IMG/VR virus record: IMGVR_UViG_3300045988_052724
Location: 125,818 to 189,817 of that record
Length of the DNA stretch: 64,000 bases
Origin: a virus
Reading direction: 5' to 3' (one strand)
Every line of letters starts with the position of its first letter. Position 1 is the first letter of the stretch. The notes beneath the pieces are model-generated. The model was given only the letters and a program-made list of their open reading frames with translations, was not told the origin of the DNA and searched no databases. The position numbers were made by a program, and so were the translations under genes. Shown here piece by piece: positions 40,819 to 56,666 of the stretch.

Positions 40819-40851
40819 CAAACATTATGTTTAACTAATCGACAATTTGAA

Positions 40852-41380: not shown

Positions 41381-41632
41381 ATGAGAAGAGTATATATTCA
41401 AATTATTGACCCGATTAATGGTACATATATAAATGCACGCCATGAATACCTCAATGCACATATGCAAGTCGTAGAGTCTACTCTAAGACAGTATGGCATA
41501 CGTAGCTCAGATTGTACACTTAAAACTGTGTCTAATATCGGTAAGGAGGTTCCTGGAATGCCCAAATACTCATTGTATCAAGGGTTGGTAAATGATACTT
41601 CCAAACTAGTAAATATAACTGTTGTAGGATAA
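41381..41632 (+). CDS. Hypothetical protein, 83 aa
   Basis: ORF track. Confidence 0.4.
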   Translation: MRRVYIQIIDPINGTYINARHEYLNAHMQVVESTLRQYGIRSSDCTLKTVSNIGKEVPGMPKYSLYQGLVNDTSKLVNITVVG

Positions 41633-41952
41633 CTCCTACTGCGAAACACGAAACTGACCTGATGAGTTAGGCTACATAGTGCGCACTATGTGGTTGACTT
41701 AAACGTGTATAAATAAAAGTTGGAACCTATTACGTATAGATTGTATTCTGCCCTCTGCGGGTGGATGAGGTGCAACTCCTCAATGTAATATATAAGGAGA
41801 GAATCCTTATATCTCTTGTAGTATCTATGTATAACTTGATTAATAGTCAGCATAACAAGAGTAGGTCGTCAGTGAAATTATTAAAAGATAGATTATGTAG
41901 GTAAAGTACGCTATATAATTATCTTATTTATGTATAAATAAGATATAAAACA
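41633..41952 (+). ncRNA. 320-nt ORF-free structured leader upstream of the TROVE-like gene
   Basis: Hairpins acatagtg-cg-cactatgt, tgagg-tgcaact-cctca, taagga-gagaa-tcctta. Contains cacgaaactgacctgatgagtt. Confidence 0.35.
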
Positions 41953-43757: not shown

Positions 43758-44549
43758 ATGATTAAGCTTAACACTTTACTTGCTAAAGTAGAACATGGTA
43801 CATCAACATTCAATAGAATGATTGGTGATTATGCTGTGTTCTTTAAGAATAAGCAAGGTATGTTTGAGGGTATCAAGAAGACCTTCAAACCGAGAGATGG
43901 CTACGCAGAAGATGCTCGTTATATGGGCACTACTAAGGTAGCTACAACTGTAGAGGAGAAGCTCGCATGGTTCGAACAGAATGCAATTCCTTATTTGAAA
44001 GACCTATTCTCTGTTGAGGCAACTAACTCTGCTGGTGCACCGAGAGTTGAATTGATAGTAGATGGTATTTCATTTGGTAAGTTGACTGCTCTTGACCTTA
44101 TGAGGCTTAAAACTATCCTAACCAGTAAGCAGCTGGAAGATATGTACGCCAATGTACCAGTGCGTTCAGATTCTGAGGTTTGGCTTGAAGGAACTGATGC
44201 AGAATATCAGGGACGTGATGTACATGAGACAGAAATGTTGAAAGGTATAACTCGTACTACTGAATCTGAGGAAGTTATCCTTAAAGACCCGAATCTTGAC
44301 CCAGCTAAGTTACCTGCTAACTATAACGCTAAGGTTACTGTTAAGAAGAAAACAGTAGAAACTGGCGATTATACATTGCAGAAGTTTACTGGCGCCTGGA
44401 CACAGAGACAACGTGCTGAATTACTGCAAAGAAGAAGTAAGATTCTTGCAGCAGTGATTGAAGCATTGAAGGTTGTTAATGATAACGAAGCACAGAGTCC
44501 GAACCTCAGTGTAGAGAAACTCATTAACTTCTTGCATCATGGTAAGTAA
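43758..44549 (+). CDS. Hypothetical protein, 263 aa, translationally adjacent to the TROVE-like gene
   Basis: ORF track. Confidence 0.45.
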   Translation: MIKLNTLLAKVEHGTSTFNRMIGDYAVFFKNKQGMFEGIKKTFKPRDGYAEDARYMGTTKVATTVEEKLAWFEQNAIPYLKDLFSVEATNSAGAPRVELIVDGISFGKLTALDLMRLKTILTSKQLEDMYANVPVRSDSEVWLEGTDAEYQGRDVHETEMLKGITRTTESEEVILKDPNLDPAKLPANYNAKVTVKKKTVETGDYTLQKFTGAWTQRQRAELLQRRSKILAAVIEALKVVNDNEAQSPNLSVEKLINFLHHGK

Positions 44550-44660: not shown

Positions 44661-44918
44661 CAGTAGCTTAAATAATCAATTGATTATAAATCTGACCATT
44701 CGCAGGTTCGAATCCTGTACGCGCCTCTAAACATAATCCTTTGTTTTAAAAGGTGAGATAGAAGCATAAGAATCAACATACTAGATAAGCAGTATTGCAA
44801 GTAAGCAGCAATCAGTATGACTCTTATGTGTATGATTCTCACCTTTCTACTAACATGGCGCGTTGGTGAAGTGGATTAACACGTCAGACTAATAAACAGC
44901 ATTAGCATGAAACTACTG
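44661..44918 (+). ncRNA. Circularly permuted tRNA-like RNA with a long imperfect closing stem
   Basis: Order is tctgac (stem), T-arm gcagg-TTCGAAT-cctgt, acgcgcc, a 131-nt insert with a 9-bp stem aaggtgaga/tctcacctt, ggcgcgt, D-arm-like gtgaagtggattaacac, gtcaga. The outer ends pair as cagtag/ctactg. Confidence 0.5.
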
Positions 44919-44971
44919 AACGTTATCTCACAACTAGGGGCTATCATCGAGGATTTTCGAGTTAGTCCTTA

Positions 44972-45046
44972 GGGGGGTTAGCTTAATGGTTAAAGCACAA
45001 GAACGTTTAATTCTTGGGAGTGGGAGTTCGACTCTCCCACCCTCTG
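44972..45046 (+). tRNA. tRNA-Lys(TTT)-like, atypical (G33, two G:U pairs in the acceptor)
   Basis: Cloverleaf gggggt/accctct, D gctt/aagc, loop cgtttaa, T gggag-TTCGACT-ctccc. Confidence 0.5.
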
Positions 45047-45083
45047 CTTCTTTTCGACATAATAAGAAATAATAGTAGAATAA

Positions 45084-45109
45084 ACTACTTGTCTGTGAAG
45101 ATAGGTAGT
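45084..45109 (+). ncRNA. Conserved GTGA-capped leader hairpin, copy 1
   Basis: Apical G-TCT-GTGA-AGA-T is conserved in 3 copies, with covarying basal stems. Confidence 0.45.
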
Positions 45110-45114
45110 AATAT

Positions 45115-45208
45115 AAGGGGATACGCAAATGGTAAAGCGGCAGTCATTAGGGACTGTGGTATAATATTCTAGGTGTATACATTGAGGGTTCGATTCCCTC
45201 TCTCCTTA
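45115..45208 (+). tRNA. Class II tRNA-like gene (long variable arm), irregular anticodon loop (6 or 8 nt, contains TAG/TTA); possibly Leu-derived or a pseudogene
   Basis: Acceptor aagggga/tctcctt, T gaggg-TTCGATT-ccctc, variable arm gtata...tatac, anticodon arm cagtc-attagg-gactg. Confidence 0.4.
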
Positions 45209-45238
45209 CAATTCTTTGTAAAAATTACATTTGTCAGC

Positions 45239-45266
45239 AGTTATTGGTCTGTGAAGATAGATAACT
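45239..45266 (+). ncRNA. Conserved GTGA-capped hairpin, copy 2
   Basis: agttattgg-TCT-GTGA-AGA-tagataact. Confidence 0.45.
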
Positions 45267-45436
45267 ATTAGTAGAGCATTAAGAAATGGTTTCTATAATG
45301 GGATATAGTAATAAATTTGATTGTTACAAAATTTAACATTATTCACTTTGTAGAGTCTAAAGATTACACTATCTTTGTACTCAGAAACGTTGAGAGAACG
45401 TGATTGTGTTTGTGTTTTATTTATCCCATTGTTGAG

Positions 45437-45520: not shown

Positions 45521-45558
45521 CAACAATATCTGCTAAAGTCAAGTGCTTTGGTGAAAAG

Positions 45559-45584
45559 TGTGCTCGTCTGTGAAGATGGGCACA
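45559..45584 (+). ncRNA. Conserved GTGA-capped hairpin, copy 3
   Basis: tgtgctcg-TCT-GTGA-AGA-tgggcaca. Confidence 0.45.
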
Positions 45585-45593
45585 TTTCATCTT

Positions 45594-45665
45594 GCAGGAT
45601 TAGTACAATGGTTAGTATGTCAGACTTCCAATCTGAATATGAGAGTTCGATTCTCTTATCCTGCT
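45594..45665 (+). tRNA. tRNA-Gly(TCC)
   Basis: gcaggat/atcctgc, loop cttccaa. Confidence 0.85.
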
Positions 45666-45910: not shown

Positions 45911-46163
45911 CATTCTTCCCCAATCTTCCAAAGGGTGAGACGGAAGCGTTATGTTGAGGGCATCACGATAGAGAGACCTTAGTATCATGCTAACTTGAAA
46001 GCATGGAGAGCATTCGCTAATAAGGCTCTCTTAAATATTTTTAGTGAGGTTAGGTAAAGCTAGCATAGCCTAATGACAGGAATTTAGTCCATAATAGATG
46101 GAAACCAATGAAGTGAGGATTGAAGTCTTCCTTATGTCCAACTAAATTCCTTTATTCAACATC
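45911..46163 (+). ncRNA. Structured spacer (several strong hairpins)
   Basis: cttcc...ggaag, catgct-aacttgaa-agcatg, and the 11-bp aggaatttagt/actaaattcct. Confidence 0.3.
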
Positions 46164-46249
46164 GCGGATTAGAGAAGTGGTCTATCTCGCCAGTCTCATA
46201 AGCTGGAACACTCATAAGGTGTCACAAGTTCGAATCTTGTATCCGCAAC
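46164..46249 (+). tRNA. Atypical tRNA, anticodon CAT, long variable arm, C1:A72 mismatch
   Basis: cgcggat/atccgca, D gaga/tctc, ccagt-CTCATAA-gctgg, 17-nt variable arm acac...gtgt, T acaag-TTCGAAT-cttgt. Confidence 0.6.
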
Positions 46250-46441: not shown

Positions 46442-46452
46442 GAAATTAATAT

Positions 46453-46535
46453 GTGGGATGGTGTAAGGGTAACATTCTAGGCTCATAACCTAGAGACAGT
46501 AATGCTTGTGGTGGTTCGAATCCACCTCCCGCTAC
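46453..46535 (+). tRNA. Atypical tRNA, anticodon CAT, long variable arm, U1:U72 mismatch
   Basis: tgtggga/tcccgct, ctagg-CTCATAA-cctag, 17-nt variable region, T ggtgg-TTCGAAT-ccacc. The HNH ORF starts 2 nt downstream. Confidence 0.6.
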
Positions 46536-46536
46536 T

Positions 46537-47007
46537 ATGAAGAGCAGGATTGATACATTTAATGATTCTACATTTAAGGAGATAGTTAGTTCTTCATCAA
46601 CTTGGAAAGAACTAGCGGAGAGATTTGGATATGAAAGTACCTTGTCCTCAAACCTTAAAGCTAAGATTATTCAAAGATGTAAGTCCCTAGGCATTCCTTG
46701 CTTAGAGATTGCTAAGAAGATACCTGCAAACCAAAGAACTAAAGGAGAGTTGTTTACTACATTAAAGAATTGGCAAACTGCTAGAACAGCAATTAGGAAA
46801 GATGCCCAAGCCGTATTTGATAAATCTAATATCCCAAGATGTTGTGCTGTATGTGGATATGATAAACACATTGAGATAGCACACATTAAAGCCGTAGCCG
46901 ATTTTGATGATGGTACTTTAGTTTCTGAGATAAATGATATAAATAATCTAATAGCCTTATGTCCTAATCACCACTGGGAATATGATAATGGGCTTTTAGA
47001 ATTGTAA
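46537..47007 (+). CDS. HNH homing-type endonuclease, 156 aa
   Basis: CAVCGYDKHIEIAHIKAV ... LCPNHHWEYDNG. Confidence 0.75.
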   Translation: MKSRIDTFNDSTFKEIVSSSSTWKELAERFGYESTLSSNLKAKIIQRCKSLGIPCLEIAKKIPANQRTKGELFTTLKNWQTARTAIRKDAQAVFDKSNIPRCCAVCGYDKHIEIAHIKAVADFDDGTLVSEINDINNLIALCPNHHWEYDNGLLEL

Positions 47008-47099: not shown

Positions 47100-47166
47100 A
47101 AGAAAGCATACAGCAACTATTTCAGCATCAAACTTTCAATTTGACACCGCTAAAACTGCTTTCTGT
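47100..47166 (+). ncRNA. Box element (agaaagc ATACAGCAA ... gctttct GT), simple form
   Basis: Closing 7-bp helix plus the conserved box. Ends 6 nt before tRNA-Ile. Confidence 0.55.
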
Positions 47167-47172
47167 TTAGAT

Positions 47173-47246
47173 TGGGTGATGGCGCAATTGGTTAGCGCAC
47201 CTCTCTGATAAGGAGGAGGTTCTGGGTTCAAGTCCCAGTCACCCAA
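47173..47246 (+). tRNA. tRNA-Ile(GAT)
   Basis: tgggtga/tcaccca, loop ctgataa. Confidence 0.85.
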
Positions 47247-47263
47247 CATCTTGATGATAGAAT

Positions 47264-47335
47264 AAGAAGTCTAACAGCAAATTACTAATCCAACATTTGA
47301 TTGCTATTCAAATTAATGATTACAGCGACTTCTGT
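47264..47335 (+). ncRNA. Box element (agaagtc TAACAGCAA ... gacttct GT), simple form
   Basis: As above. Ends 4 nt before tRNA-Val. Confidence 0.55.
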
Positions 47336-47339
47336 AAAT

Positions 47340-47413
47340 AGTCCCTTAGCTCAGTTGGTGAGAGTATCTGGCTTACATCCAGAGGGTCGTAGGTTCGAAC
47401 CCTACAGGGACTA
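47340..47413 (+). tRNA. tRNA-Val(TAC)
   Basis: agtccct/agggact, loop cttacat. Confidence 0.85.
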
Positions 47414-47496
47414 CGTAATGCACGTGAGGCTAGCGTGACGTAGACATTCCTATCCCTGACAGCAAATATGGAATCCACATCGTAGGGTGGCGTTGG

Positions 47497-47527
47497 TACT
47501 ACAGCAAGGGTAGTGTTATCTGTAGTA
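47497..47527 (+). ncRNA. Leader hairpin tactacag/ctgtagta containing ACAGCAA
   Basis: 8-bp perfect stem. Ends 3 nt before tRNA-Asn. Confidence 0.4.
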
Positions 47528-47530
47528 ATT

Positions 47531-47605
47531 GGGGAGTTAGCTATAATTGGTTAGAGCGACGGGCTGTTAACCCGTAGGTTGTCGGTTCGAACCCGACACT
47601 CCCCT
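47531..47605 (+). tRNA. tRNA-Asn(GTT)
   Basis: ggggagt/actcccc, loop ctgttaa. Confidence 0.85.
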
Positions 47606-47687
47606 CAACCTAGCGAGGTTTCACGTACTAATATGTACACAAAAGAGAACTTCTACGTAGATTTGTTGTGAAACAAGTCTACTATAT

Positions 47688-47759
47688 GCGTCGGTGGCAT
47701 GACTGGGAAGCAACGCTCTCCAAAAGCGTGATATGGGGGTTCGAATCCCTCACGGCGTG
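47688..47759 (+). tRNA. tRNA-Trp(CCA), weak D-arm
   Basis: acgct-CTCCAAA-agcgt, T ggggg-TTCGAAT-ccctc. The acceptor has wobbles. Preceded by the 11-bp GTGA-capped hairpin gtagatttgtt/aacaagtctac. Confidence 0.65.
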
Positions 47760-47777
47760 CAGCGATTAGTTATCAAT

Positions 47778-47849
47778 AAGAAGACTTACAGCAAACAATT
47801 ATGATTATAGCAGTATTTTGGACCGCAAATATCAACAATAGTCTTCTGT
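47778..47849 (+). ncRNA. Box element (agaagac TTACAGCAA ... gtcttct GT), simple form
   Basis: Ends 5 nt before tRNA-Pro. Confidence 0.55.
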
Positions 47850-47854
47850 TAAAT

Positions 47855-47928
47855 TGGGAGGTAGGACAATGGGCTAGTCTACTACATTTGGGATGTAGAG
47901 GTTGCGAGTTCGAATCTCGTCCTCCCAA
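47855..47928 (+). tRNA. tRNA-Pro(TGG)
   Basis: tgggagg/cctccca, loop tttggga. Confidence 0.85.
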
Positions 47929-47950
47929 CACATTTATGGTTAAGTTATAT

Positions 47951-48107
47951 AAGAATACTTACAGCAAAACTTAAAGCAAATTCAAACAAATCGTAATTTT
48001 GTCTTAAACGTAGGTTCGATTCCTACCCTTCCCACCATTGTGTGACTATTTAAATGGGAAGGTTGAAATGTTGGGGTAGTCCGAAAGGGCGAAAAGAAGT
48101 ATTCTGT
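47951..48107 (+). ncRNA. Box element (agaatac TTACAGCAA ... gtattct GT) enclosing a permuted tRNA-like core
   Basis: Interior order: T-arm gtagg-TTCGATT-cctac, ccttccc-ACCA, 18-nt loop, gggaagg. Ends 4 nt before tRNA-Ala. Confidence 0.55.
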
Positions 48108-48111
48108 CTAT

Positions 48112-48184
48112 GGGGAGGTAGCATAATTGGCTAATGCACTAGATTTGCAATCTGGAGGATTGGGTTCGAGTCCCACCTGCTCCA
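48112..48184 (+). tRNA. tRNA-Ala(TGC), second copy
   Basis: ggggagg/ctgctcc with G3:U70, ctaga-TTTGCAA-tctgg. Confidence 0.7.
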
Positions 48185-48271
48185 CGAATCTTAGAGATTC
48201 ATGTTTCAACAACTCTTTATTTAAATTAGACCCAGATAGAGAAACATAAATACACGTAAAGTAGTGTTTAT

Positions 48272-48343
48272 GTAGGGTTGCCCGAGCGGTTTAGGGGCTG
48301 GTCTGCAAAACCAGTTAGAACGGTTCGACTCCGTTACCCTACT
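48272..48343 (+). tRNA. tRNA-Cys(GCA)
   Basis: gtagggt/accctac, ctggt-CTGCAAA-accag. Confidence 0.8.
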
Positions 48344-48362
48344 CTATTTTGAGTTTAACGAA

Positions 48363-48484
48363 AAGAAACCTTACAGCAATACCTCTATGCCTTGTAAGCC
48401 GTAGGTTATGGGTTCGAGTCCCATAGGTGGATACGTCCACTTTAGCTCAATTGGATAGAGCAACGTATTAAAAATGGTTTCTGT
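48363..48484 (+). ncRNA. Box element (agaaacc TTACAGCAA ... ggtttct GT) enclosing a permuted tRNA-like domain with a tetraloop-capped acceptor
   Basis: atggg-TTCGAGT-cccat, then gtgga-TACG-tccac, then tt-agctcaattggatagagc (canonical D-arm). Confidence 0.65.
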
Positions 48485-48522
48485 ACCCACATCTATTGTT
48501 AATTCAATAATGTGGGTTTTCT

Positions 48523-48596
48523 CACCCCGTAGCTTAATTGGTTAAAGCCTTGCACTTTTAATGCAGAGAGTCCGAGTTCGAGTCTCGGCGGGGTGA
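48523..48596 (+). tRNA. tRNA-Lys(TTT)
   Basis: caccccg/cggggtg, loop cttttaa. Confidence 0.85.
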
Positions 48597-48633
48597 CAAG
48601 GTGTTTTTCATAACACCTCCTTTCAACTACTGT

Positions 48634-48851
48634 AAGAGGACATACAGCAAAGTCTGATACAACTAATTATTAAATTCAATGACTGTCTCCGAAGTAATCC
48701 CGTAAGGGTGCAGGCAAGACTAGAGTAGGACGCTTGAAGTAAATGTACTAAGCTATGAGAATTAGCCCTGACTATGCTAGGTAAGTATAGTGTCTACCCA
48801 TTCTGAATTGGGAGAGTGGGAGACATTAAATGTAAAACCCATGTCCTCTGT
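48634..48851 (+). ncRNA. Box element (agaggac ATACAGCAA ... gtcctct GT) with a 200-nt structured interior
   Basis: Nested long-range pairs gtctcc/ggagac. Local hairpins ccc-GTAA-ggg and ccca-ttctgaat-tggg. Confidence 0.5.
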
Positions 48852-48852
48852 T

Positions 48853-48903
48853 AAACCTATCCATCGAATTTCTGTTTCTGGAGTTTTGGATAGGTTTATT
48901 TTA
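48853..48903 (+). terminator. Intrinsic terminator
   Basis: aaacctatcc...ggataggttt (10 bp) followed by atttt. Confidence 0.6.
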
Positions 48904-48945
48904 ACTAACAAGATTGACATATTTATTCAGTAACACTATCTTATT

Positions 48946-49050
48946 ATGAAAGCAATTAGACTAATTAAGAAGGCTGTTAAGTGGTATTTGGACAGAACTG
49001 CTAATTCTTACATCTACCCTACTGGAACTCTCCCTATTATAAAGGAGTAA
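48946..49050 (+). CDS. Possible microprotein, 34 aa
   Basis: MKAIRLIKKAVKWYLDRTANSYIYPTGTLPIIKE. TTGACA-17 nt-TATCTT lies upstream. Confidence 0.25.
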   Translation: MKAIRLIKKAVKWYLDRTANSYIYPTGTLPIIKE

Positions 49051-49092
49051 GTTCCTATGCTGCTGAAGTGAATATGTAAATCAACAAACTAT

Positions 49093-49184
49093 GGAAGTGT
49101 AAGCCTAATTGCTAAGGCAGCGGTCTTGAAAACCGCCAGTAATCGTGTAACAGCGATGTGTGGGTTGGAGTCCCACCACTTCCT
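49093..49184 (+). tRNA. tRNA-Ser(TGA)
   Basis: ggaagtg/cacttcc, gcggt-CTTGAAA-accgc, long variable arm, unusual T-loop TTGGAGT. Confidence 0.75.
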
Positions 49185-49206
49185 CAACTATCAACAACAA
49201 AGTATT

Positions 49207-49515
49207 ATGACAGGAAGATTTAGAGCAATTAACAAGATTAGTAAACACAAGATGTCCTTATTATGGGATAGAGCATTTGCAGTACTTACAAAGGAGTATG
49301 CAGTGGTCAATGCTATTAATAAAGGATTTAGTGAAGAGAGCAAACAAGTAGTAACTAAGAGATTTGATTACCTCGAATCCTTAATCTCTACTGGTCACTT
49401 AGAGAAAATGCCTCGTAAAATGAAGAAGGCATTTATAAGAGAACTTTCAGCAAGGTATAACCTTTGTCTGATTATATTACAACATTGGGATGAATTTAAA
49501 GAAATAAAGGCATGA
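49207..49515 (+). CDS. Hypothetical protein (start moved to the ATG downstream of tRNA-Ser)
   Basis: The ORF-track 49126 start lies inside the tRNA. MTGRFRAINK... begins at 49207. Confidence 0.45.
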   Translation: MTGRFRAINKISKHKMSLLWDRAFAVLTKEYAVVNAINKGFSEESKQVVTKRFDYLESLISTGHLEKMPRKMKKAFIRELSARYNLCLIILQHWDEFKEIKA

Positions 49516-49581
49516 TTGACGTATTATTAGCAGACATTGTATTTGATTGGACTTTCCTAAAACCCTTAATTGAAAGAGACG

Positions 49582-49842
49582 ATGGAAAGAAAGAATCAAA
49601 CGAAGTGGATGAGTCCACGCAACAGGTATTGGCGCAAGCAGAAGTTAGTCCAGAAATATATTACTAGGTTAAAGAAGTTTCCTGCTAGTAATTATGGATT
49701 GTGGTGTGATAACTATAATCAACATTGGACTTTGCCTTATAAATCAACAAGTACTCCATGTAGTTGTTGGTTATGTAAAGGAGAACGATATAATAGACGA
49801 AAGTTTAAAAAGGAAACTAGACTTGAAATAGCAATGTTTTAA
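49582..49842 (+). CDS. Hypothetical basic protein
   Basis: ORF track frame, first ATG. Confidence 0.4.
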   Translation: MERKNQTKWMSPRNRYWRKQKLVQKYITRLKKFPASNYGLWCDNYNQHWTLPYKSTSTPCSCWLCKGERYNRRKFKKETRLEIAMF

Positions 49843-49856
49843 GTTATTTAATTTAT

Positions 49857-50000
49857 AAGAAGTCTTACAGCAACAACATTAGCAATTCGATTATGGTTCG
49901 ACTAGCCTGGGTTCAACTCCCAGCAACCTCCCAAATTATTAGTACTATATGGAGGTTGTAGTGTAACGGTTAGCACAGTATATGCAAACAAATGACTTCT
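49857..50000 (+). ncRNA. Box element (agaagtc TTACAGCAA ... gacttct) enclosing a permuted tRNA-like domain
   Basis: ctggg-TTCAACT-cccag, caacctcc, 18-nt loop, ggaggttg, ta-gtgtaacggttagcac (D-arm). Ends 6 nt before tRNA-Arg. Confidence 0.6.
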
Positions 50001-50006
50001 GATGAT

Positions 50007-50078
50007 GCCTCGATAGTTCAACGGATAGAACAGTAGCCTTCTAAGCTACATATCTAGGTTCGATTCCTAGTCGGGGTA
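50007..50078 (+). tRNA. tRNA-Arg(TCT)
   Basis: gcctcga/tcggggt, gtagc-CTTCTAA-gctac. Confidence 0.8.
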
Positions 50079-50208
50079 CTAACTTGGCAAGGTTGACTTA
50101 TAGACCGAGGTTGTGGTAGGGGTAGTGCCTTATGTGGATGAGGTCGTACCTTATTGGTGATGCATCACTAATCATAAATGGAAGTGGGTACGAGTGTAGG
50201 TCTAACAT

Positions 50209-50281
50209 GGTGTTTATAGTTCAACGGTTAGAATAACTGATTGTGGTTCAGTAGATGTGGTTTCGACTACCACTAAACACC
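50209..50281 (+). tRNA. tRNA-His(GTG) with encoded G-1
   Basis: 8-bp acceptor ggtgttta/taaacacc, actga-TTGTGGT-tcagt. Confidence 0.85.
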
Positions 50282-50376
50282 CTTATGGCAGTAGGTTTTA
50301 AAATAAAATCTTCCTGTTTGTTTACTATTGCCTTAACGTGGTTTAGAAGGATTGCACGAAAATAAATCCTTCCTCT

Positions 50377-50448
50377 GGGGCGGTAGCTCAATGGTAGAGC
50401 GCAGGTCTGAAGAGCCTGGCGTTGGAGGTTCGATTCCTCCTCGCCCCA
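50377..50448 (+). tRNA. tRNA-Phe(GAA)
   Basis: ggggcgg/tcgcccc, caggt-CTGAAGA-gcctg. Confidence 0.85.
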
Positions 50449-50463
50449 CGTCGATTAGTAGAC

Positions 50464-50582
50464 GAGAACTAACAGCATTAGCATTGTTTCCCAAGCAGTT
50501 GGTCTGAGGTTCGAATCCTCACGTTAGCTTAGGCTAATGTAGCTCAGTGGTAGAGCAACAGCCTCATAAACAAATAGTTCTC
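50464..50582 (+). ncRNA. Box element (gagaac TAACAGCA ... gttctc) enclosing a permuted tRNA-like domain
   Basis: tgagg-TTCGAAT-cctca, cgttagc-TTAG-gctaatg, ta-gctcagtggtagagc, then acagc-CTCATAA. Confidence 0.6.
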
Positions 50583-50621
50583 AGCTGTTTTACAGAGTTA
50601 CAGGTTAAAGAAACTCTGTAT

Positions 50622-50709
50622 GGAGAGTTGGGTGAGCGGTCGAAACCAGAGTCCTGCTAAGACTCCGAACCTCAAAAGGGTTCCGCTAGTTCGAATCTAG
50701 CACTCTCCG
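50622..50709 (+). tRNA. tRNA-Ser(GCT)
   Basis: ggagagt/actctcc, gagtc-CTGCTAA-gactc, long variable arm. Confidence 0.85.
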
Positions 50710-50747
50710 CAAGTATATTTGGAATTTTTGTATAATAATGATTAATT

Positions 50748-51086
50748 ATGATTACTATGACAAAGATTCAGCCTATAAATCCTAATGAAATAATCAGCGA
50801 GAAGGTAAAGATAATACCTGACCAAGTTATTAGGGTTTTCAACGAACTGATTGCAAGAAACTGGAACAAAGACAAATCAATAGTGTTTACTAATGAAGCT
50901 GTTGAGTTTATAAAGTTTCTGACTGGTGCTAGTAAGGATACTATCATACAAAACCATTGGTTAGATGTAGAACCTCTCTACAGAGAAAATGGATATGAAG
51001 TAACTTACCATGAGTCCCAGGGTAATGAATCCTTCCCCTCATATTATGAGTTTAGGAAGAAGTCTCTAAATGCTGGGTTCGAATAA
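50748..51086 (+). CDS. Hypothetical protein, 112 aa; 3' end overlaps tRNA-Glu by 15 nt
   Basis: ORF track. Confidence 0.4.
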   Translation: MITMTKIQPINPNEIISEKVKIIPDQVIRVFNELIARNWNKDKSIVFTNEAVEFIKFLTGASKDTIIQNHWLDVEPLYRENGYEVTYHESQGNESFPSYYEFRKKSLNAGFE

Positions 51087-51143
51087 CGGCTAGTTCCTCA
51101 CACTTTCGATGTGAAGATAGGGGTTCGATTCCCCTACCCAGTA
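51072..51143 (+). tRNA. tRNA-Glu(TTC)
   Basis: gctgggt/acccagt, tcaca-CTTTCGA-tgtga. Confidence 0.8.
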
Positions 51144-51326
51144 CCTTGTAGTCCTCCTTAATCCTTAATAGGATAGTTAGGCTACACTGTGAACGAACAG
51201 AGGAGAGGAGTTCACACGTTGGCTAGCAACGTAGTACACAATGGTGGGATAGGAACGGCTAGCACCCACCTTAACTGTTCTTATAATACTAGTTAAACGC
51301 CTAGCGGGGGTTAGAACAGTTAAAAT
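51144..51326 (+). ncRNA. Structured spacer
   Basis: atcct-taat-aggat, ggtggg...cccacc, and the 11-bp ttaactgttct/agaacagttaa. Confidence 0.3.
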
Positions 51327-51398
51327 ACTCCTATCTACTAATGGTTAGGTAATCGGTCTCTCAAGCCGAAAATACGGGTTCGAATCCCGTTGGGAGTA
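51327..51398 (+). tRNA. tRNA-Glu(CTC)
   Basis: actccta/tgggagt, tcggt-CTCTCAA-gccga. Confidence 0.7.
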
Positions 51399-51469
51399 CG
51401 ATAATGGGGTACCATTATGAAAATCATCTTATAACAGAGTTATCAGTTCGTGAGAATAGATAACTAATC

Positions 51470-51539
51470 GAGGGCGTAGTGTAATGGTCAGCACGCCTCC
51501 CTGTCACGGAGGTAGAGGGGTTCGAGTCCCACGTTCTCG
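51470..51539 (+). tRNA. tRNA-Asp(GTC), second copy, weak T-stem
   Basis: gagggcg/cgttctc, cctcc-CTGTCAC-ggagg. Confidence 0.55.
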
Positions 51540-51568
51540 GCTGAACGTAGTAAGAATTACTTTATTGA

Positions 51569-51715
51569 AAGAAGACTTACAGCAAATCAAAACTACTAAG
51601 AATCAATTGGTAAGTGAAAGGTGCAGGGTTCGATTCCTTGCCTATACCGCTAAAGTCCTGATGGGTATAGTAGTTTAAATGGTTAGAACGTATTAGAAAC
51701 AGGCAATAGTCTTCT
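51569..51715 (+). ncRNA. Box element (agaagac TTACAGCAA ... gtcttct) enclosing a permuted tRNA-like domain
   Basis: caggg-TTCGATT-ccttg, ctatacc, 14-nt loop, ggtatag, ta-gtttaaatggttagaac. Confidence 0.6.
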
Positions 51716-51745
51716 GAGCGTACATCTAAGTATGTACGCTAATTC

Positions 51746-51805
51746 GCCTCCTTAGCTTTAATGGTAGAGCAACTCACTTGTAATGAGAAGGTTGTCAGTT
51801 AAGTA
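51746..51805 (+). pseudogene. 3'-truncated tRNA-Thr(TGT)
   Basis: gcctcct acceptor strand, D-arm and ctca-CTTGTAA-tgag are present. There is no matching T-stem or 3' acceptor strand. Confidence 0.5.
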
Positions 51806-51849
51806 TTACAAAGATTAGCATTTGCAAATGTTTTTATGTAAAATGATTT

Positions 51850-52227
51850 ATGAGTAGCTTTAAAGACGGATTGAGAAGAAGTGGTCAGAGTGTATTGGAT
51901 GCAAGGGCGCAGAACTTGTATGAAATGACTAAAATTGAAGAGGAACGTTTCATTCAGGAATGTAAAATGAAGGTTCTTCGTATCAAGAATGAGTTGAACA
52001 AACACAGAGACCTATCTGTAAAGTCCACTACTTCGTTAGAGGTTGGTAACGGCTTTGACCCGAAGGCTTGGGTAGCTAAAAGACATCAATTGGAACGTGA
52101 CCTGAGGGTTGCTAACATTGAATATGCTTTGGCTCTTAAAGTAGACGGAGAAGAGTTTCCAGCTGACGAAACTGAGGAACAACTTAACGTAGCAGCAGTG
52201 CTAGAAAACGATGCTAAATTGAATTAA
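51850..52227 (+). CDS. Hypothetical coiled-coil protein, 125 aa
   Basis: ORF track. Confidence 0.45.
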   Translation: MSSFKDGLRRSGQSVLDARAQNLYEMTKIEEERFIQECKMKVLRIKNELNKHRDLSVKSTTSLEVGNGFDPKAWVAKRHQLERDLRVANIEYALALKVDGEEFPADETEEQLNVAAVLENDAKLN

Positions 52228-52230
52228 TCT

Positions 52231-53178
52231 ATGGGAAGTGGAAGTTATTCTTTTGCAGCTTATGCAAGCTTAGCTAGTGATAGAGGATATGCAACTAAGT
52301 CAGCCGATGCTGTCTTCACTAATCATTCTCTATCAGCTAAATCAGACATTAAATTGTCTAATATAAATGCAAGAACTTATAACACTCAGATTAAACCAGA
52401 AATGGTTGATACTGGTGTTAGAGAAAGTAGAGATAGCAACGAACACCCAGAGACAACTCCAATTATCATTGCTCTTGATGTTACTGGTTCAATGCGTAGA
52501 ACACCTCATGAAATGATTAAGGATAACTTCCCTAAACTCATGGATGCTCTAATGCAACTGGGAGTCAAAGACCCGCAGCTGCTATTTATGGCTGTAGGAG
52601 ACCATGAATATGACCGCTATCCAATTCAAGTTGGGCAGTTTGAGTCTGATACTGAGAAGATTGTAAATTCACTAGAAGAGTTTGTACTCGAAGGTGGAGG
52701 TGGTGGTAATGCTGGCGAAAGCTACTTACTAGCACATATAATTGCTGGGTATCACACTGAAACAGATTCATGGTTTAAGAGACACAAGAAAGGTTACTTA
52801 TTCACCATTGGTGATGAACCTAACTTGCGTAACATCAGTGGACATGCTTTAGAAGATTTCTTAGGCTATCAACATCCTGCTAATCCTATTAGTGCGGATG
52901 AAGCTGTTAAGAAGGCTCAAGAGCAATATAATGTCTATCATATTCACGTTACTAATGGTAGCTATGGTACAAGAATCGCTCCAGGTTGGAAGGATTTACT
53001 TGGACAGAATGTATTAACTTGCGATTCGCATAACATTCACAATGTTATTGCAGAAGCTATCAAGCAACACGAAGACCTTACTGGAATACCTTATGAGGCA
53101 CAAGCAGTGGTTGATATCCCTGCTTACACTCCTAATAGTACCAGTGCAGGTGAAGAAAACGGAACTTATACCTATTAA
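52231..53178 (+). CDS. vWA-domain protein, 315 aa
   Basis: MIDAS-like IIIALDVTGSMRRT with downstream ...GGGGGNAGESY... and TIGDEP. Confidence 0.6.
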   Translation: MGSGSYSFAAYASLASDRGYATKSADAVFTNHSLSAKSDIKLSNINARTYNTQIKPEMVDTGVRESRDSNEHPETTPIIIALDVTGSMRRTPHEMIKDNFPKLMDALMQLGVKDPQLLFMAVGDHEYDRYPIQVGQFESDTEKIVNSLEEFVLEGGGGGNAGESYLLAHIIAGYHTETDSWFKRHKKGYLFTIGDEPNLRNISGHALEDFLGYQHPANPISADEAVKKAQEQYNVYHIHVTNGSYGTRIAPGWKDLLGQNVLTCDSHNIHNVIAEAIKQHEDLTGIPYEAQAVVDIPAYTPNSTSAGEENGTYTY

Positions 53179-53184
53179 TAGTAG

Positions 53185-54291
53185 ATGAATGAAATTGTAT
53201 TAGGTTCGTTCTTTGGTGACGAGGGTAAAGGACAAACTATCCATAATTTATGTAAGGCACATCCTAAAGAAGAGACAATAGTTATACGATTCAGTGGTGG
53301 ACACCAAGTAGGACATACTGTAAGGCATGGAAAGCTTGAACACACATTTAGTAATTATGGTAGTGGTACTTTACTAGGGATACCAACGTACTGGTCTAGT
53401 TACTGTACAGTAGACCCTATTACTACTATGAAGGAGTTGGTTGATTTAAATAAAATGGGAGCAAACCCTGAGATTATTTATCACCCACTCTGCGAGGTTG
53501 TTACTCCCTTTGACGTTATTAGTCAATGGAATAATGAGGACAACCTTAGACATGGTACTGTAGGGACTGGTTTCAAATCTGCTCTTGATAGAGTAGCTGC
53601 TGGTTATCATATTACAGTTCGAGATTGTGCTAATATCATGGTTTTAAGAACCAAGATAGCATCACTTATCAAGAACTATTATGATTTTAGTTCCAACCTT
53701 CCAATGTACAATATTGATGAATGGTGTGTTAAAGTGTATGAGTATTTCAAGTCCGTAATTGTACATGACGAGAGTATTTTAACTCGTTATGAGTACAAGG
53801 TATTTGAAGGCTCACAAGGTATATTATTAGACCAGAGGTTTGGTATAATGCCTTATTGCACTCCAAGCAACACCACTTGTCAAAATGCTGTGGAGATTAT
53901 TAATAGGATTAGAAAAGAATCTAAGAACCACTTAGATAGAATGACGGAAGAGATAACAGACCATGTGTATGTTATCAGACCATATATCACTAGACATGGT
54001 AATGGTCCAATTCCTTCTACTAAACCTGTTAGAGAAGTAAATGACCCTAATAATAAGTTCAACGAGTTTCAAAAGACTCTTAGAGCTGTAGAGTTTGATG
54101 TGAATTTATTCCAGCACTCTTTATTAGTTGATTCTACTTTCATTCCACACCATTACACTCACAGAAGAGTATTAGTTATTACTCATAGAGATGAAATCAC
54201 ATCTCAGTTTAATGATGAACTTCTATCTGGTGATTGGGAGGAACAATTCAACAGCATACGAACATCTTATTATGACAAACTCACTGTTTGA
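53185..54291 (+). CDS. Adenylosuccinate synthetase family protein, short form, 368 aa (PurA/PurZ-like)
   Basis: GSFFGDEGKGQ (P-loop GDEGKG), RFSGGHQVGHTV, FEGSQGILLD, YCTPSNTT, ITRHGNGPIP align to PurA motifs. The Asp/IMP-binding TTGRRRR region is diverged. Confidence 0.65.
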   Translation: MNEIVLGSFFGDEGKGQTIHNLCKAHPKEETIVIRFSGGHQVGHTVRHGKLEHTFSNYGSGTLLGIPTYWSSYCTVDPITTMKELVDLNKMGANPEIIYHPLCEVVTPFDVISQWNNEDNLRHGTVGTGFKSALDRVAAGYHITVRDCANIMVLRTKIASLIKNYYDFSSNLPMYNIDEWCVKVYEYFKSVIVHDESILTRYEYKVFEGSQGILLDQRFGIMPYCTPSNTTCQNAVEIINRIRKESKNHLDRMTEEITDHVYVIRPYITRHGNGPIPSTKPVREVNDPNNKFNEFQKTLRAVEFDVNLFQHSLLVDSTFIPHHYTHRRVLVITHRDEITSQFNDELLSGDWEEQFNSIRTSYYDKLTV

Positions 54292-54304
54292 CATAGTATA
54301 TTAT

Positions 54305-54402
54305 AAAACGACATACAGCAAGTAATCATACTGACTTTCAAATAGTAAAACCCTCTGCTGCCCATTGTGGAGGTTAAAGAGTTGAATGGGAATGTCGTTT
54401 GT
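54305..54402 (+). ncRNA. Box element (aaacgac ATACAGCAA ... gtcgttt GT)
   Basis: Interior stem cccatt/aatggg. Ends 5 nt before tRNA-Gln. Confidence 0.55.
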
Positions 54403-56044: not shown

Positions 56045-56117
56045 CAACTTCTGGATTGAATTTTTAGTTTTGCACCAAAACATTTGGTATTATGATTATT
56101 TTCATATATATTTGTAT

Positions 56118-56666
56118 ATGAATTACAATGATTATAATACACAGAAGTTAAGAGGTTTAAAGCGCAAATTAGAGCTAGTAAAATCTCGTGGTGGTAAATG
56201 TGAACTATGCGGCTATGATAGAAACATAGCTGTTCTAGAATTTCACCATATCAATCCAGATGAGAAAGAGTTTCAGTTAGATATGAGACATTTATCTAAT
56301 ACAAGTCTAGAAAGGCTTAAAGAGGAAGCAGATAAATGTCAACTTCTATGCGCTAATTGTCATAGAGAAGTACATAACCCTCACTTGGGAATGGACGAAG
56401 TTGAAGATTTAGTTAATACTGAAGCTAAAGATAAGACGTCTTTTGAAAATATGACTGGGTCTGTATGCCCAGTATGCGGCAAAAGATTTCCTAAATCTAA
56501 GGGTAAGATATACTGTTCTAAGGAATGCAGAGATGCTGATAAACATTATCCTTCTCTAGAAGAAGTAAATGAGCAGTACGAAATACTTAAGAATTGGGAG
56601 AAAGTTGCTCAGCATTTTGGATTAACTCGCAGAGTTATTCAAGGAATAAGAAAGAAAGACTCATAA
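56118..56666 (+). CDS. HNH homing-type endonuclease inside the tRNA-like gene
   Basis: CELCGYDRNIAVLEFHHINPDEKEF ... LLCANCHREVHN. Its stop TAA is part of the CTCATAA junction. ATG at 56118 preferred. Confidence 0.75.
   Translation: MNYNDYNTQKLRGLKRKLELVKSRGGKCELCGYDRNIAVLEFHHINPDEKEFQLDMRHLSNTSLERLKEEADKCQLLCANCHREVHNPHLGMDEVEDLVNTEAKDKTSFENMTGSVCPVCGKRFPKSKGKIYCSKECRDADKHYPSLEEVNEQYEILKNWEKVAQHFGLTRRVIQGIRKKDS

Follow-up and report, generated by a model that had tools for sequence, protein, structure and literature searches.

Ten units dispersed through a phage tRNA cluster probably encode, judging from their sequences, a family of small, modular RNAs that resemble Y RNAs and have a putative Ro-like protein partner. 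They were found in a 64,000-nucleotide stretch of viral DNA, here called the window (IMG/VR record IMGVR_UViG_3300045988_052724, positions 125,818 to 189,817). The most likely explanation for them, in which we infer both binding and function, is that they are modular Y-RNA-like partners of a Ro-like protein encoded by the phage.

All ten units lie on the plus strand of the window between 47100 and 54402, where a preliminary description had placed ten copies of the element. Each reads as an A, a unit-specific helix strand, (U/A)ACAGCA(A/U), a variable interior, the complement of the helix strand and then G(U). The common scaffold is thus a short closing helix and a UUACAGCAA box. The helix is perfect, at 7–9 bp, in every unit (the pair in unit 8 is GAGAACUA/UAGUUCUC), and the dinucleotide 3' of it is GU in seven units, GA in two and AG in one. 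Units 1 to 3 are short. Unit 1 (47100–47166; helix 47101–47108/47157–47164, box UACAGCAA at 47109–47116, tail GU) encloses an anticodon-stem-loop-like hairpin, UCAAA-CUUUCAA-UUUGA, and its helix ends 8 nt before tRNA-Ile. Unit 2 (47264–47335; helix 47265–47271/47327–47333, box AACAGCAA, tail GU) begins 16 nt past tRNA-Ile, with tRNA-Val 6 nt past its helix end, and unit 3 (47778–47849; helix 47779–47786/47840–47847) shares the box UACAGCAA and the GU tail with unit 1. The 218-nt unit 6 (48634–48851; helix 48635–48643/48841–48849, box UACAGCAA) has a large, structured interior of unclassified type and is followed by a hairpin and then a U-run. Three protein-coding genes separate unit 10 (54305–54402; helix 54306–54314/54392–54400, AAACGACAU; box UACAGCAA, tail GU) from the other units, and tRNA-Gln begins 7 nt past its helix. 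An uncertain candidate for an eleventh, variant unit, GACUAA-UAAACAGCAUUAGCAU ... UUAGUC, lies on the plus strand at about 44889–44967 and ends 4 nt before tRNA-Lys. It has AACAGCAUUAGCAU in common with unit 8, and its closing helix is not favoured by the minimum-free-energy fold.

Comparison with related phage DNA shows that the closing helix is under selection. The actual helix strand has a perfect 7-mer complement downstream at 252 of 323 distinct box occurrences and upstream at just 8, and when helices were swapped between elements a mean of 12.5 of the 323 had a downstream complement. As a chance background, 34% of random positions have a 6-mer complement no more than 400 nt away. The elements use 86 different helices. 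Among 26 aligned units of a single interior class (the anticodon-stem-loop-like class of unit 1), both sides change at all seven closing pairs and all five hairpin pairs, and RNAalifold found the closing helix de novo. The inner five pairs of the 7–8 bp helix appear free to vary. The compensatory, RNA-level helix of the preliminary description is therefore borne out, and the pattern is kept in related phages. Strand is also conserved, with 137 of 140 units in related phages on the strand of the Ro-like protein gene. A position weight matrix trained solely on elements of other phages scored nine window units at 21–30.5 bits and the variant unit 8 at 9.3; the next best plus-strand site reached 15.4 bits, and the minus strand held no strong copy, with no site above 8.0 bits.

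These patterns bear on whether the units act as DNA, as promoters, terminators or attC-like folded single-strand recombination sites that shuffle tRNA cassettes. A conserved box in a constant place, inverted repeats around a variable centre, a location between tRNA genes and a weakly promoter-like 5' context (TAUAAG-like) would all fit such a role. However, conserved RNA motifs are present in the interiors (T-loops, D-loops, anticodon-type loops of 7 nt), the strand bias tracks transcription, and in some back-to-back arrays neighbouring units are just 4 nt apart, with no cassette in between. No integrase was found linked across the loci, and scans for sigma-70-type promoters and terminators came out at or below shuffled expectation. 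We consider a DNA-level role the least probable of the explanations weighed here.

Some of the units mimic tRNA. A T-arm followed by a loop-closed acceptor helix is present in units 4, 5, 7, 8 and 9, and by sequence reading a canonical D-arm comes next in four of them, those starting at 48363, 49857, 50464 and 51569. The preliminary description had counted five units with this full order; its T-arms and sealed acceptors stand, and its D-arm count was slightly overstated because unit 4 (47951–48107; helix 47952–47960/48097–48105) reads as non-canonical in the D region. The T-arm of that unit (48010–48026) leads into an 8-bp acceptor helix with a loop of about 17 nt, its 3' acceptor strand is followed by ACCA, and the permuted and beta tmRNA models match weakly at 48010–48063. 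Unit 5 (48363–48484; helix 48364–48370/48476–48482) is, on its sequence, the cleanest YrlA-like unit of the ten, with its T-arm at 48408–48424, the acceptor GUGGA-UACG-UCCAC and the D-arm AGCUCAAUUGGAUAGAGC. Unit 7 (49857–50000; helix 49858–49864/49994–50000) has its T-arm at 49907–49923, an 8-bp acceptor helix with a 19-nt closing loop and the D-arm UAGUGUAACGGUUAGCAC, with tRNA-Arg 6 nt past the helix end. Unit 8 (50464–50582), with the variant scaffold GAGAACUA-ACAGCAUU, has its T-arm at 50505–50521, a 7-bp acceptor helix closed by UUAG and the D-arm UAGCUCAGUGGUAGAGC. In unit 9 (51569–51715; helix 51570–51577/51708–51715) the T-arm (51624–51640) precedes a 7-bp acceptor helix with a 15-nt closing loop and the D-arm UAGUUUAAAUGGUUAGAAC. 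The remaining units hold an anticodon-stem-loop-like hairpin or an unclassified interior.

A search with the Rfam YrlA model, as had been proposed, gave two window matches that are significant though below the gathering score of 69: 48400–48468 in unit 5 (40.1 bits, E 8.8e-6, model positions 23–88) and 50472–50591 in unit 8 (38.3 bits, E 2.8e-5, full model 1–114). Units of an Enterococcus and a Klebsiella phage scored 47.9 and 40.1 bits. With T-arm, 3' acceptor strand, loop, 5' acceptor strand and D-arm in this order, the units might instead be split or permuted tRNA genes that yield a functional tRNA after cleavage of the acceptor loop or Cyanidioschyzon-like circularisation. The 7–8 bp acceptor helices of units 4, 7, 8 and 9 and the ACCA encoded in unit 4 would suit this, and YrlA of M. 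smegmatis is cleaved by RNase P and gains CCA (PMC4201824). However, there is no anticodon arm, and the closing helix and box stand in its place; half of the units are devoid of tRNA parts; the acceptor helix of unit 5 is only 5–6 bp; and 33 ordinary tRNAs are already encoded in the window. This makes functional tRNAs a very improbable product, by a slight step less so than DNA-level elements.

The position of the units among tRNAs can be read in more than one way. A tRNA begins 6–8 nt past the helix end in six of the ten units, in agreement with the six copies earlier described as lying just upstream of a tRNA, and seven units begin 14–36 nt past one. The spacing makes release by RNase P plausible; it would also suit cis-acting punctuation, leader–trailer helices for maturation or stability of the tRNA array with no independent life as RNAs. 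In one relative a unit encloses a whole tRNA-Tyr (locus L166, 2935–3050), as such helices might. We find this explanation unlikely, if far less so than the two above. Against it are arrays in which as many as about 14 units stand in tandem without intervening tRNAs (L166, L172, L178, L186) and the conservation of YrlA-like domains and a CUUNUAA-loop hairpin as interior modules across distant phages, and the same scaffold gives abundant stand-alone RNAs in Dictyostelium (PMC7919456).

The presumed protein partner is a 600-aa product encoded on the plus strand at 41953–43755, with an alpha-helical N-terminal part and a vWA domain whose DxSxS metal-site motif is invariant (D364/S366/S368). Pfam assigns it to DUF7788 (6e-10) and DUF2828 (7e-5), with TROVE not found, and PHROG 850, "RNA-binding protein," matches at 8e-30. 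Searched against the PDB with Foldseek, a structural model of moderate quality (pLDDT 70.7, pTM 0.48) gave Ro60 as its top eight matches (E 7.6e-8, about 590 aligned columns), with TM-scores of just 0.30–0.37. The Ro60-like ORF noted previously upstream of the units thus holds by predicted fold and not by Pfam family; on the model, the protein appears Ro60-like within DUF2828/DUF7788 rather than TROVE. An Enterococcus phage homologue matches mycobacteriophage entries named "Ro-like RNA binding protein" at 1e-67 to 8e-77. CKA15_055, the homologue in Listeria phage CKA15, has an HHpred match to Rsr, and up to 2 kb upstream of it are three very highly transcribed non-coding regions that, according to the authors, might be Y RNAs (PMC12282133). 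We found no correspondence between these regions and the units of Listeria phage A511; the sole CKA15 region with coordinates falls on a different unannotated stretch.

The scaffold adjoins Ro60-like genes in many unrelated phages, a very broad linkage of RNA genes and a protein gene. Of 66 loci retrieved by way of the protein (41–99% identity), 62 have units no more than about 4 kb from the Ro-like gene, often in tight tandem arrays and, in distant relatives, often 8–900 nt from the gene. Among 59 loci found by the RNA motif alone, the protein is present in 15, whenever the fetched DNA was long enough (for example, L004, L018, L020, L045 and L073). Nine of 11 cultured phage lineages examined have units flanking the gene: Leptolyngbya Lbo-JY46, Klebsiella KP2025, Enterococcus EfsSzw-1, Mycobacterium Lumos, Salmonella FelixO1, Listeria A511, Campylobacter F370, Staphylococcus S-CoN_Ph7 and Bacillus MrDarsey, with Vibrio K566 ambiguous. 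In Aeromonas phiAS5 and Yersinia fHe-Yen9-03, no unit lies closer to the homologue than 4 kb. The proposed pairing of RNA and protein genes accordingly extends across very distant phages. Among related phages the linkage is partly inherited and to that extent not independent evidence.

Another host or phage protein might bind the scaffold, with the Ro-like gene merely a member of a neighbourhood of tRNA and RNA-repair genes. The sole direct binder shown for a Class I RNA of Dictyostelium, the family whose scaffold the units share, is the RRM protein Rnp1A, which binds DdR-21 (PMC7919456). The window units lie within a tRNA array, 3.3–10.5 kb from the Ro-like gene, and it may be the array, not the protein gene, with which they are really associated; in A511, genes for RtcB-type and other RNA ligases are nearby. 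The Rsr-binding motif of YrlA, GNCGAAN0-1G, is absent from the phage units, which counts against our preferred explanation and fits a different binder. However, in phages whose fetched locus holds few tRNAs or none, units abut the Ro-like gene (at 8 nt in L186 and 39 nt in L180), the L177 locus has no tRNA, and no other protein gene was found conserved across the loci. Bacteria are not known to have obvious Rnp1A homologues, which also speaks against this alternative. A different binder is the strongest of the competing explanations, although still an improbable one.

Each unit combines a constant scaffold with variable cargo. The scaffold comprises a 5' (A)AG, a closing helix of 7–8 bp, a (C)UUACAGCAA box that is single-stranded and lies opposite an A-rich strand, and a 3' CUG(U); the cargo is a permuted YrlA-type tRNA-like "elbow," an anticodon-stem-loop-like hairpin or unclassified sequence. 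If the units are indeed partners of the Ro-like protein, they would be transcribed together with the tRNA array and trimmed out, partly (for six units) by RNase P cutting the 5' end of the following tRNA. The scaffold would then be the putative binding site of the Ro60-like protein, and tRNA-like cargo might tether or decoy tRNA-recognising host or phage factors, by analogy with bacterial Y RNAs that tether PNPase to Rsr. In this scheme we infer where the transcripts end, that RNase P processes them, that the protein binds them and what their biological role is.

Several known RNAs share parts of this design. Metazoan Y RNAs and nematode stem-bulge RNAs are multi-copy families with an end helix and a variable loop or module. 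As proposed for the phage units, their paired ends carry conserved protein-binding features for Ro60 (PMC4201824), but the phage units have no GGUCCGA bulged helix, and their single-stranded box is enclosed by the helix rather than lying within it. In two-piece tmRNAs and permuted tRNA genes the T-arm and 3' acceptor strand likewise precede the 5' acceptor strand; the phage units differ in having no mRNA-like or anticodon part and in the Class I-type scaffold that closes their termini. Canonical phage Ro60 does bind phage-encoded Y-like RNAs. In Thermus phage phiLo, Yrl1 and Yrl2 are encoded beside the gene for a Ro60-type protein, for which RNA binding and a PNPase complex were demonstrated (PMC12135203). 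However, phiLo Ro60 is canonical and its RNAs carry a CGAA motif, so that both protein family and RNA motif differ from those of the window phage.

Bacterial and phage YrlA-type Y RNAs (RF02553; PMC4201824) share the order of T-arm, loop-closed acceptor helix and D-arm, with a terminal helix in place of the anticodon arm, and the 7-bp acceptor helices of the phage units resemble those of the RNase P-cleaved M. smegmatis YrlA. Like the phage units, YrlA genes stand near a Ro60-like gene on the same strand (within 4 kb; PMC4201824; Chen 2014), and YrlA/YrlB occur as several paralogues in one genome. The YrlA topology earlier assigned thus holds for about half of the units, whereas an identity with YrlA is not supported. 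The units lack two defining features of YrlA, since ACAGCAA replaces the Rsr motif (cmscan sets phage AGCA(A/U) opposite YrlA GGCGA) and the scores, at 38–48 bits, fall far short of the gathering score. In addition, half of the units are without a tRNA-like domain, the presumed partner is DUF2828/DUF7788 and not Pfam TROVE, and phage arrays reach about 14 units.

The phage scaffold, which runs from an AAG start through a short helix and CUUACAGCAA to a CUGU end, is that of dictyostelid Class I RNAs, for which AAG, helix, CUUACAGCAA, helix and CUGU is the published signature (PMC7919456; Rfam RF01414). This link was unexpected and is absent from the preliminary description. End-to-end alignments of phage units to RF01414, a model built solely from Dictyostelium sequences, reached 39.3, 30.7 and 30.5 bits (the last at 47780–47848 in unit 3, the best in the window), and no unit reached the gathering score of 41.5. 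Shared features include a short covarying helix that joins the ends, a conserved AAG start and CUGU end in which that G pairs with that C, the roughly 11-nt conserved motif CCUUACAGCAA right after the 5' strand, an A/U-rich variable interior with an A-run ahead of the 3' strand, and clustered genes (Aspegren 2004; Avesson 2011; Kjellin 2021, PMC7919456). Unlike Class I RNAs, the units are phage-encoded, are found within tRNA arrays or next to a Ro-like gene and have no DUSE promoter. Class I RNAs are 42–65 nt long, and many phage units are far longer because they carry tRNA-like cargo. Class I RNAs have been reported as unique to Dictyostelia (PMC7919456); their scaffold is now seen in phages.

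The best description of the ten RNA elements on the plus strand between 47100 and 54402 is a new phage-borne branch in which the scaffold of the dictyostelid Class I RNAs carries cargo of the YrlA type or otherwise tRNA-like; the branch is linked to Ro-like proteins of the DUF2828 family. All ten copies named in the preliminary description were confirmed (units 1 to 10: 47100-47166, 47264-47335, 47778-47849, 47951-48107, 48363-48484, 48634-48851, 49857-50000, 50464-50582, 51569-51715, and 54305-54402). Its account of their ends also held, with the box directly after the 5' strand, an exact complement closing the unit, and G, usually GU, next. Each copy reads A, one strand of a 7-9 bp helix, (U/A)ACAGCA(A/U), an interior, the exact helix complement, and G (usually GU). 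The helix is perfect in 10/10 units; the form (U/A)ACAGCAA stands immediately past it in nine, usually as CUUACAGCAA, and unit 8 has AACAGCAU. A weight matrix trained only on elements of other phages recovered nine copies at 21-30.5 bits and the variant copy 8 at 9.3 bits, with the best other sites in the window at 15.4 bits (plus strand) and 8.0 bits (minus strand). Eight of the ten units start with AAG; seven end in CUGU or UUGU and two in CUGA. Lengths run from 64 to 218 nt, only three units being 72 nt or shorter, and in relatives the median is 92 nt and the mode 60-80 nt.

To assess the closing helix beyond the window, an exact scan of IMG/VR for AAGAAGNCUUACAGCAA was followed by a scripted search, which gave about 200 elements on many contigs of roughly 100-200 kb. 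For a non-circular sample, every occurrence of A-RG-N5-NN-ACAGCAA was taken without requiring a helix. Among these 323 distinct occurrences, 252 were followed within 450 nt by a perfect 7-mer complement, compared with 8 that had one upstream and a mean of 12.5 when helices were swapped between elements. Related DNA holds 86 distinct helices. The family logo reads AUA-AG-AAGAC-UUACAGCAA-AU, an A-rich stretch, and GUCUU-CU-GU; conservation covers helix pairs 1-2 and the last pair, with those between free to vary. It starts with A (100%, set by the filter used for selection), A (88%), and G (89%), and ends with C (84%), U (93%), and G (83%). We also aligned 26 units of one interior class from seven kinds of phage. 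RNAalifold recovered the closing helix unguided, and changes on both sides were present in 7/7 closing pairs and 5/5 pairs of an internal hairpin; as these units were picked for being paired, the percentage paired is biased, but the diversity of pair types is not. The compensatory stem changes first noticed within the window extend to related phages, both in how often the helix closes and in the covariation of all seven pairs. ACAGCAA is invariant across five phage lineages (alignment A2). At its base the helix has a lineage-specific sequence (AG...CU in the window, UGGAC...GUCCA in Mycobacterium phage Lumos, AGACC...GGUCU in Salmonella phage FelixO1) while ACAGCAA and the 3' G stay constant, a pattern that, on sequence grounds, suggests co-evolution with a protein.

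Several other readings were considered. A promoter or terminator would act at the DNA level, but sigma-70-type scans were at or below shuffled expectation. A retron could account for the AGC that the box places beside the helix, but the sole reverse transcriptase gene (10904-12160, minus strand) lies 35 kb away and is DGR-like. Integron attC-like sites were rejected because the units hold conserved RNA motifs, show a strand bias with transcription, and form arrays with 4-nt spacing with no linked integrase. A pairing of ACAG with CUGU can be drawn instead, but it would rival the covarying helix and has nothing in its favour. At permissive E-values, Rfam assigned the units of this region and of three cultured-phage loci to no ribozyme and no other known family, apart from sub-threshold matches to YrlA and Dicty_Class_I_RNA.

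The units are linked to the gene at 41953-43755 (plus strand, 600 aa) and its homologues. When loci were found through this protein (41-99% identity), at least one unit lay within about 4 kb of the gene in 62 of 66, and contig ends cut two of the four exceptions. In loci found by the RNA motif alone, the gene was present in 15/59, whenever the DNA retrieved extended far enough. Close relatives have their units in a tRNA array about 3 kb downstream of the gene, like the window, and distant relatives have tight tandem arrays beside it with 4-nt spacers (...CUG-AUA-AG...). One relative (L166, 1700-3190) has about 14 units in a row straight after the gene; also there, at about 1700-1770, is a tRNA-like element whose anticodon region is shortened. 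Units flank the gene in nine of the 11 cultured phage lineages examined: Leptolyngbya Lbo-JY46, with five unannotated units 8 nt past the gene, Klebsiella KP2025, Enterococcus EfsSzw-1, Mycobacterium Lumos, Salmonella FelixO1, Listeria A511, Campylobacter F370, Staphylococcus S-CoN_Ph7, and Bacillus MrDarsey. Aeromonas phiAS5 and Yersinia fHe-Yen9-03 had no units within 4 kb of the homologue. No other neighbouring gene is universal; only DUF7873 (43758-44549 in the window) recurs, in 29/67 loci.

Additional RNA features were observed around these arrays. In related phage contigs, some arrays have hatchet ribozymes (68.6 and 55.4 bits) and group I introns no more than a few kb away (L004 1620-1705, L177 5062-5246, L178 16821-17548). 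In EfsSzw-1, a conserved segment of about 50 nt with a GUUCC...GGAAC hairpin precedes each unit (L188 4369-4420, 4554-4604, and 4736-4786), a module not seen in the window. In A511, about 650 nt of unannotated sequence with a strong sigma-A-type promoter, and without the ACAGCAA box, lies upstream of the units (L191 3444-4103; record positions 26142-26801). In the related Listeria phage CKA15, HHpred matches the homologue to Rsr and the protein has been found in virions; the 2 kb upstream of its gene include three non-coding regions with very high transcription (PMC12282133). The A511 stretch is probably the counterpart of the most highly transcribed of these; attempts to map the three regions onto the A511 units were without success.

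The preliminary description had placed a Ro60-like ORF upstream of the units, which stands for architecture but not for sequence family. Pfam assigns ORF 41953-43755 to DUF7788 (6e-10), with DUF2828 (7e-5) below its cut-off, and gives no TROVE match; NCBIfam had no match, and PDB searches by sequence and by profile returned nothing. An AlphaFold2 model built from 26 homologues (pLDDT 70.7) has helices over the N-terminal residues 48-352 and a C-terminal alpha/beta vWA-like domain at 359-576. Foldseek ranks 1-8 against the PDB were all Ro60 (E 7.6e-8 to 2.2e-5) over about 550-620 columns, nearly full length, although TM-scores were low (0.30-0.37). The features of Ro60, an alpha-helical repeat ring and a C-terminal vWA domain with a metal-ion site, are predicted for this protein also, and the metal-site motif DxSxS (D364-x-S366-x-S368) is invariant. 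Given the fold match and the lack of TROVE, we consider it to have Ro60-like architecture within a separate sequence family. Homologues occur in 698 sequenced phage records and, according to BFVD, in giant viruses; published papers also report the DUF2828/DUF7788 family in plants. The Enterococcus phage homologue matches mycobacteriophage proteins (1e-67 to 8e-77) that carry the annotation 'Ro-like RNA binding protein', and the cultured-phage homologues, including one annotated 'Ro-like', carry DUF2828 and DUF7788, not TROVE. Our literature search on DUF2828, 'Ro-like' phage proteins, and Y RNA found no earlier description of these units. Ro60/Y-RNA biology would be extended to a second, divergent protein family.

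The interiors are more varied than the scaffold. Five copies had been described as enclosing a permuted tRNA-like domain with a canonical D-arm; a T-arm and loop-closed acceptor helix are present in all five, but the D-arm is canonical in only four. The domain is thus complete in the units at 48363, 49857, 50464, and 51569, and partial at 47951-48107, where the D region, read by eye in the sequence, is non-canonical. The other five window units have no T-arm/acceptor/D-arm domain. A T-arm was found in 78/344 distinct elements, mostly those of 80-180 nt. Many short elements instead have a 5-bp hairpin with the 7-nt loop C-U-U-N-U-A-A, most commonly CUUUUAA, which is an anticodon-loop signature; unit 1 has CUUUCAA. 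One unit of a relative (L166 2935-3050) encloses a complete tRNA-Tyr(GUA). The cargo that could be classified is made of tRNA pieces, and many interiors, such as that of unit 6, remain unclassified. A guide or antisense role was not favoured, as the longest interior matches elsewhere in the window (12-15 nt) were at chance level or shared T-loops.

The window is a piece of a large phage genome, related contigs being about 100-200 kb, and Megablast against sequenced phages returned nothing beyond short tRNA or tmRNA matches, so it has no close cultured relative. The left half holds terminase, portal, and tail genes together with the reverse transcriptase gene (PHROG 1423, 1e-113), which adjoins tail and tail-fibre genes and probably belongs to a diversity-generating retroelement. 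In the right half (40-63 kb) everything lies on the plus strand, including a tmRNA, a RAGATH-34 RNA, and 33 tRNA genes. The phage-encoded tmRNA (40283-40821, Rfam 83.3 bits) precedes the Ro-like gene by 1.1 kb, and EfsSzw-1 (L188 1231-1581) and another relative (L173) likewise have a tmRNA near this gene. Directly upstream of the Ro-like ORF is the RAGATH-34 RNA (41623-41733, 73.8 bits, above its gathering score), which includes CUGAUGAG and for which we found no literature. HNH endonuclease ORFs are located within the tRNA array (46537-47007 and 56070-56666), and among the RNA genes are an ORF with a PHROG 2971 match, a DxSxS-type motif, and no Pfam hit (52231-53178), and genes for an adenylosuccinate-synthetase-like protein (53185-54291), RNase H (60842-61252), and a TerD-domain protein (63038-63637). 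Two tRNA-Met genes, at 46163-46249 and 46452-46535, are unusually long, and the tRNA call at 45115-45209 has an anticodon of 4 nt. Just past unit 9 and a hairpin, with a protein-coding block next, Rfam reports a truncated tRNA (51746-51800) that covers model positions 1-53 and lies at the limit of the searched stretch; ARAGORN on the whole window called none there.

Other plus-strand structures were noted in the same region. A second hairpin family (45080-45115, 45236-45275, and 45555-45595) has the conserved loop G-UCUGUGAAGAU-R and 6-nt arms that vary between copies yet remain complementary; of the three copies in the window, two stand right before tRNAs, and related loci have 33 distinct variants. 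At 44690-44975, a T-arm and 3' acceptor strand (44700-44730) are separated by about 125 nt from a matching 5' acceptor strand and D-arm (44857-44885). These split tRNA-like parts are followed by a possible variant unit (44889-44967), which has AACAGCAUUAGCAU in common with copy 8. A small hairpin at 47488-47522, UACUACAG-CAAGGGUAGUGUUAU-CUGUAGUA, has an ACAGCAA box that pairs through ACAG with CUGU; it and a second stray ACAGCAA at 47459 may be decayed units.

How the units might work can be proposed from better-known systems. By analogy with Ro60 and Y RNA, including those of phage phiLo (PMC12135203), the scaffold would serve as a handle for the Ro-like protein and the tRNA-like cargo as an effector module. 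As previously proposed, six of the ten copies stand just before a tRNA, ending 6-8 nt ahead of it (counted from the helix), and seven begin 14-36 nt downstream of one. The units and the tRNAs probably share transcripts, from which RNase P may release some of the units. Because the classifiable cargo is made of tRNA pieces, a role in phage-host conflict over tRNA is suggested, the units perhaps acting as decoys or recruiters of enzymes that cleave, repair, or modify tRNA; their position inside phage tRNA arrays fits such a role. With no unit at any Rfam gathering score, a large unannotated family of non-coding RNAs is defined here, and the lineages that carry it include classic model phages in which experiments are easy.

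The earlier suggestion of a Y-RNA or YrlA-like architecture is partly supported. In the definition of Chen et al. (2014), YrlA has a tRNA-like domain, carries GNCGAAN0-1G as its 5' motif, and is encoded no more than 4 kb from a Ro60 gene, on the strand of that gene (PMC4201824). The tRNA-like domain is found in four or five units; the motif, presumed to be the Rsr-binding site (PMC4201824), is absent, and the phage units have ACAGCAA, although cmscan places ACAGCAUU opposite YrlA acggCgaA. The units are all on the strand of the Ro-like gene, the first three 3.3-4.0 kb downstream and the others up to 10.5 kb, but the protein is Ro60-like by fold only, and whether position counts therefore depends on its identity. 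The Rfam YrlA scan that had been proposed gave significant matches far below the gathering score of 69: 40.1 bits over the tRNA-like core at 48400-48468, 38.3 bits at full length (50472-50591), and at best 47.9 bits in other phages. YrlA is bound by Ro60/Rsr, and by analogy the phage units may be bound by the Ro-like protein. A permuted tRNA gene should regain a complete cloverleaf, anticodon arm included, after processing, but the units lack such an arm and have the Class I-type helix and box in its place.

The scaffold itself corresponds to that of the Class I RNAs, RNAs of about 60 nt from clustered genes, in which a short covarying helix joins ends that begin with AAG and finish with CUGU, an 11-nt motif lies beside the 5' strand, and the interior is variable (PMC7919456). 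Kjellin et al. (2021) state that such RNAs do not occur outside Dictyostelia, the only bacterial search being of one species (PMC7919456), and we found no paper linking Class I RNAs with phages or phage Y-like units. Beyond YrlA, the only Rfam match in the region was Dicty_Class_I_RNA, with 30.5 bits at 47780-47848; units of Lbo-JY46 (L186) scored 39.3, the best anywhere, 30.7, and 26.2 bits. Neither the window nor the 147 kb scanned from nine loci has a match that reaches the gathering score of 41.5. The Rfam consensus, GaUcuC-CUUACAGCAA-Uua...AAAAAc...GagAuC-UG, nevertheless aligns with the phage units end to end. In both, a short helix conserved in structure and not in sequence joins the ends (86 helices in the phages). 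The Class I motif of about 11 nt (CCUUACAGCAA) directly follows the 5' strand (positions from PMC7919456) and has its equivalent in the phage units, which by sequence also share AAG and CUGU at their predicted ends. The phage units differ in length (42-65 nt, median about 60, in Class I RNAs versus 64-218 nt in the window), and a DUSE promoter about 60 nt upstream and association with Rnp1A are eukaryote-specific features of the Class I RNAs. Judged from predicted structures and motifs, every scaffold feature of the Class I RNAs is common to the phage units, while length and gathering score are not, nor, probably, is the promoter. A broader reading, which we advance tentatively and place somewhat short of an even chance, is that Class I RNAs, phage YrlA-like RNAs, and short phage units form one ancient scaffold family with the DUF2828/DUF7788 Ro60-like protein as its conserved partner. 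The scaffold would be a universal handle for that protein, the interior an exchangeable cargo (a tRNA elbow, an anticodon stem-loop, even a whole tRNA), and the system would have passed among phages, protist-infecting giant viruses, and amoebae. If so, the Class I RNAs, orphans since 2004 and called unique to Dictyostelia, would gain a testable molecular function, a DUF2828 protein would be predicted among their unidentified binding proteins, and model phages such as FelixO1 and A511 would encode an uncharacterised RNP. The link to Class I RNAs, which are implicated in development, joins their literature to that of the tRNA-mimic Y RNAs of bacteria and phages, two fields never before connected, and makes the role of Class I RNAs directly testable.
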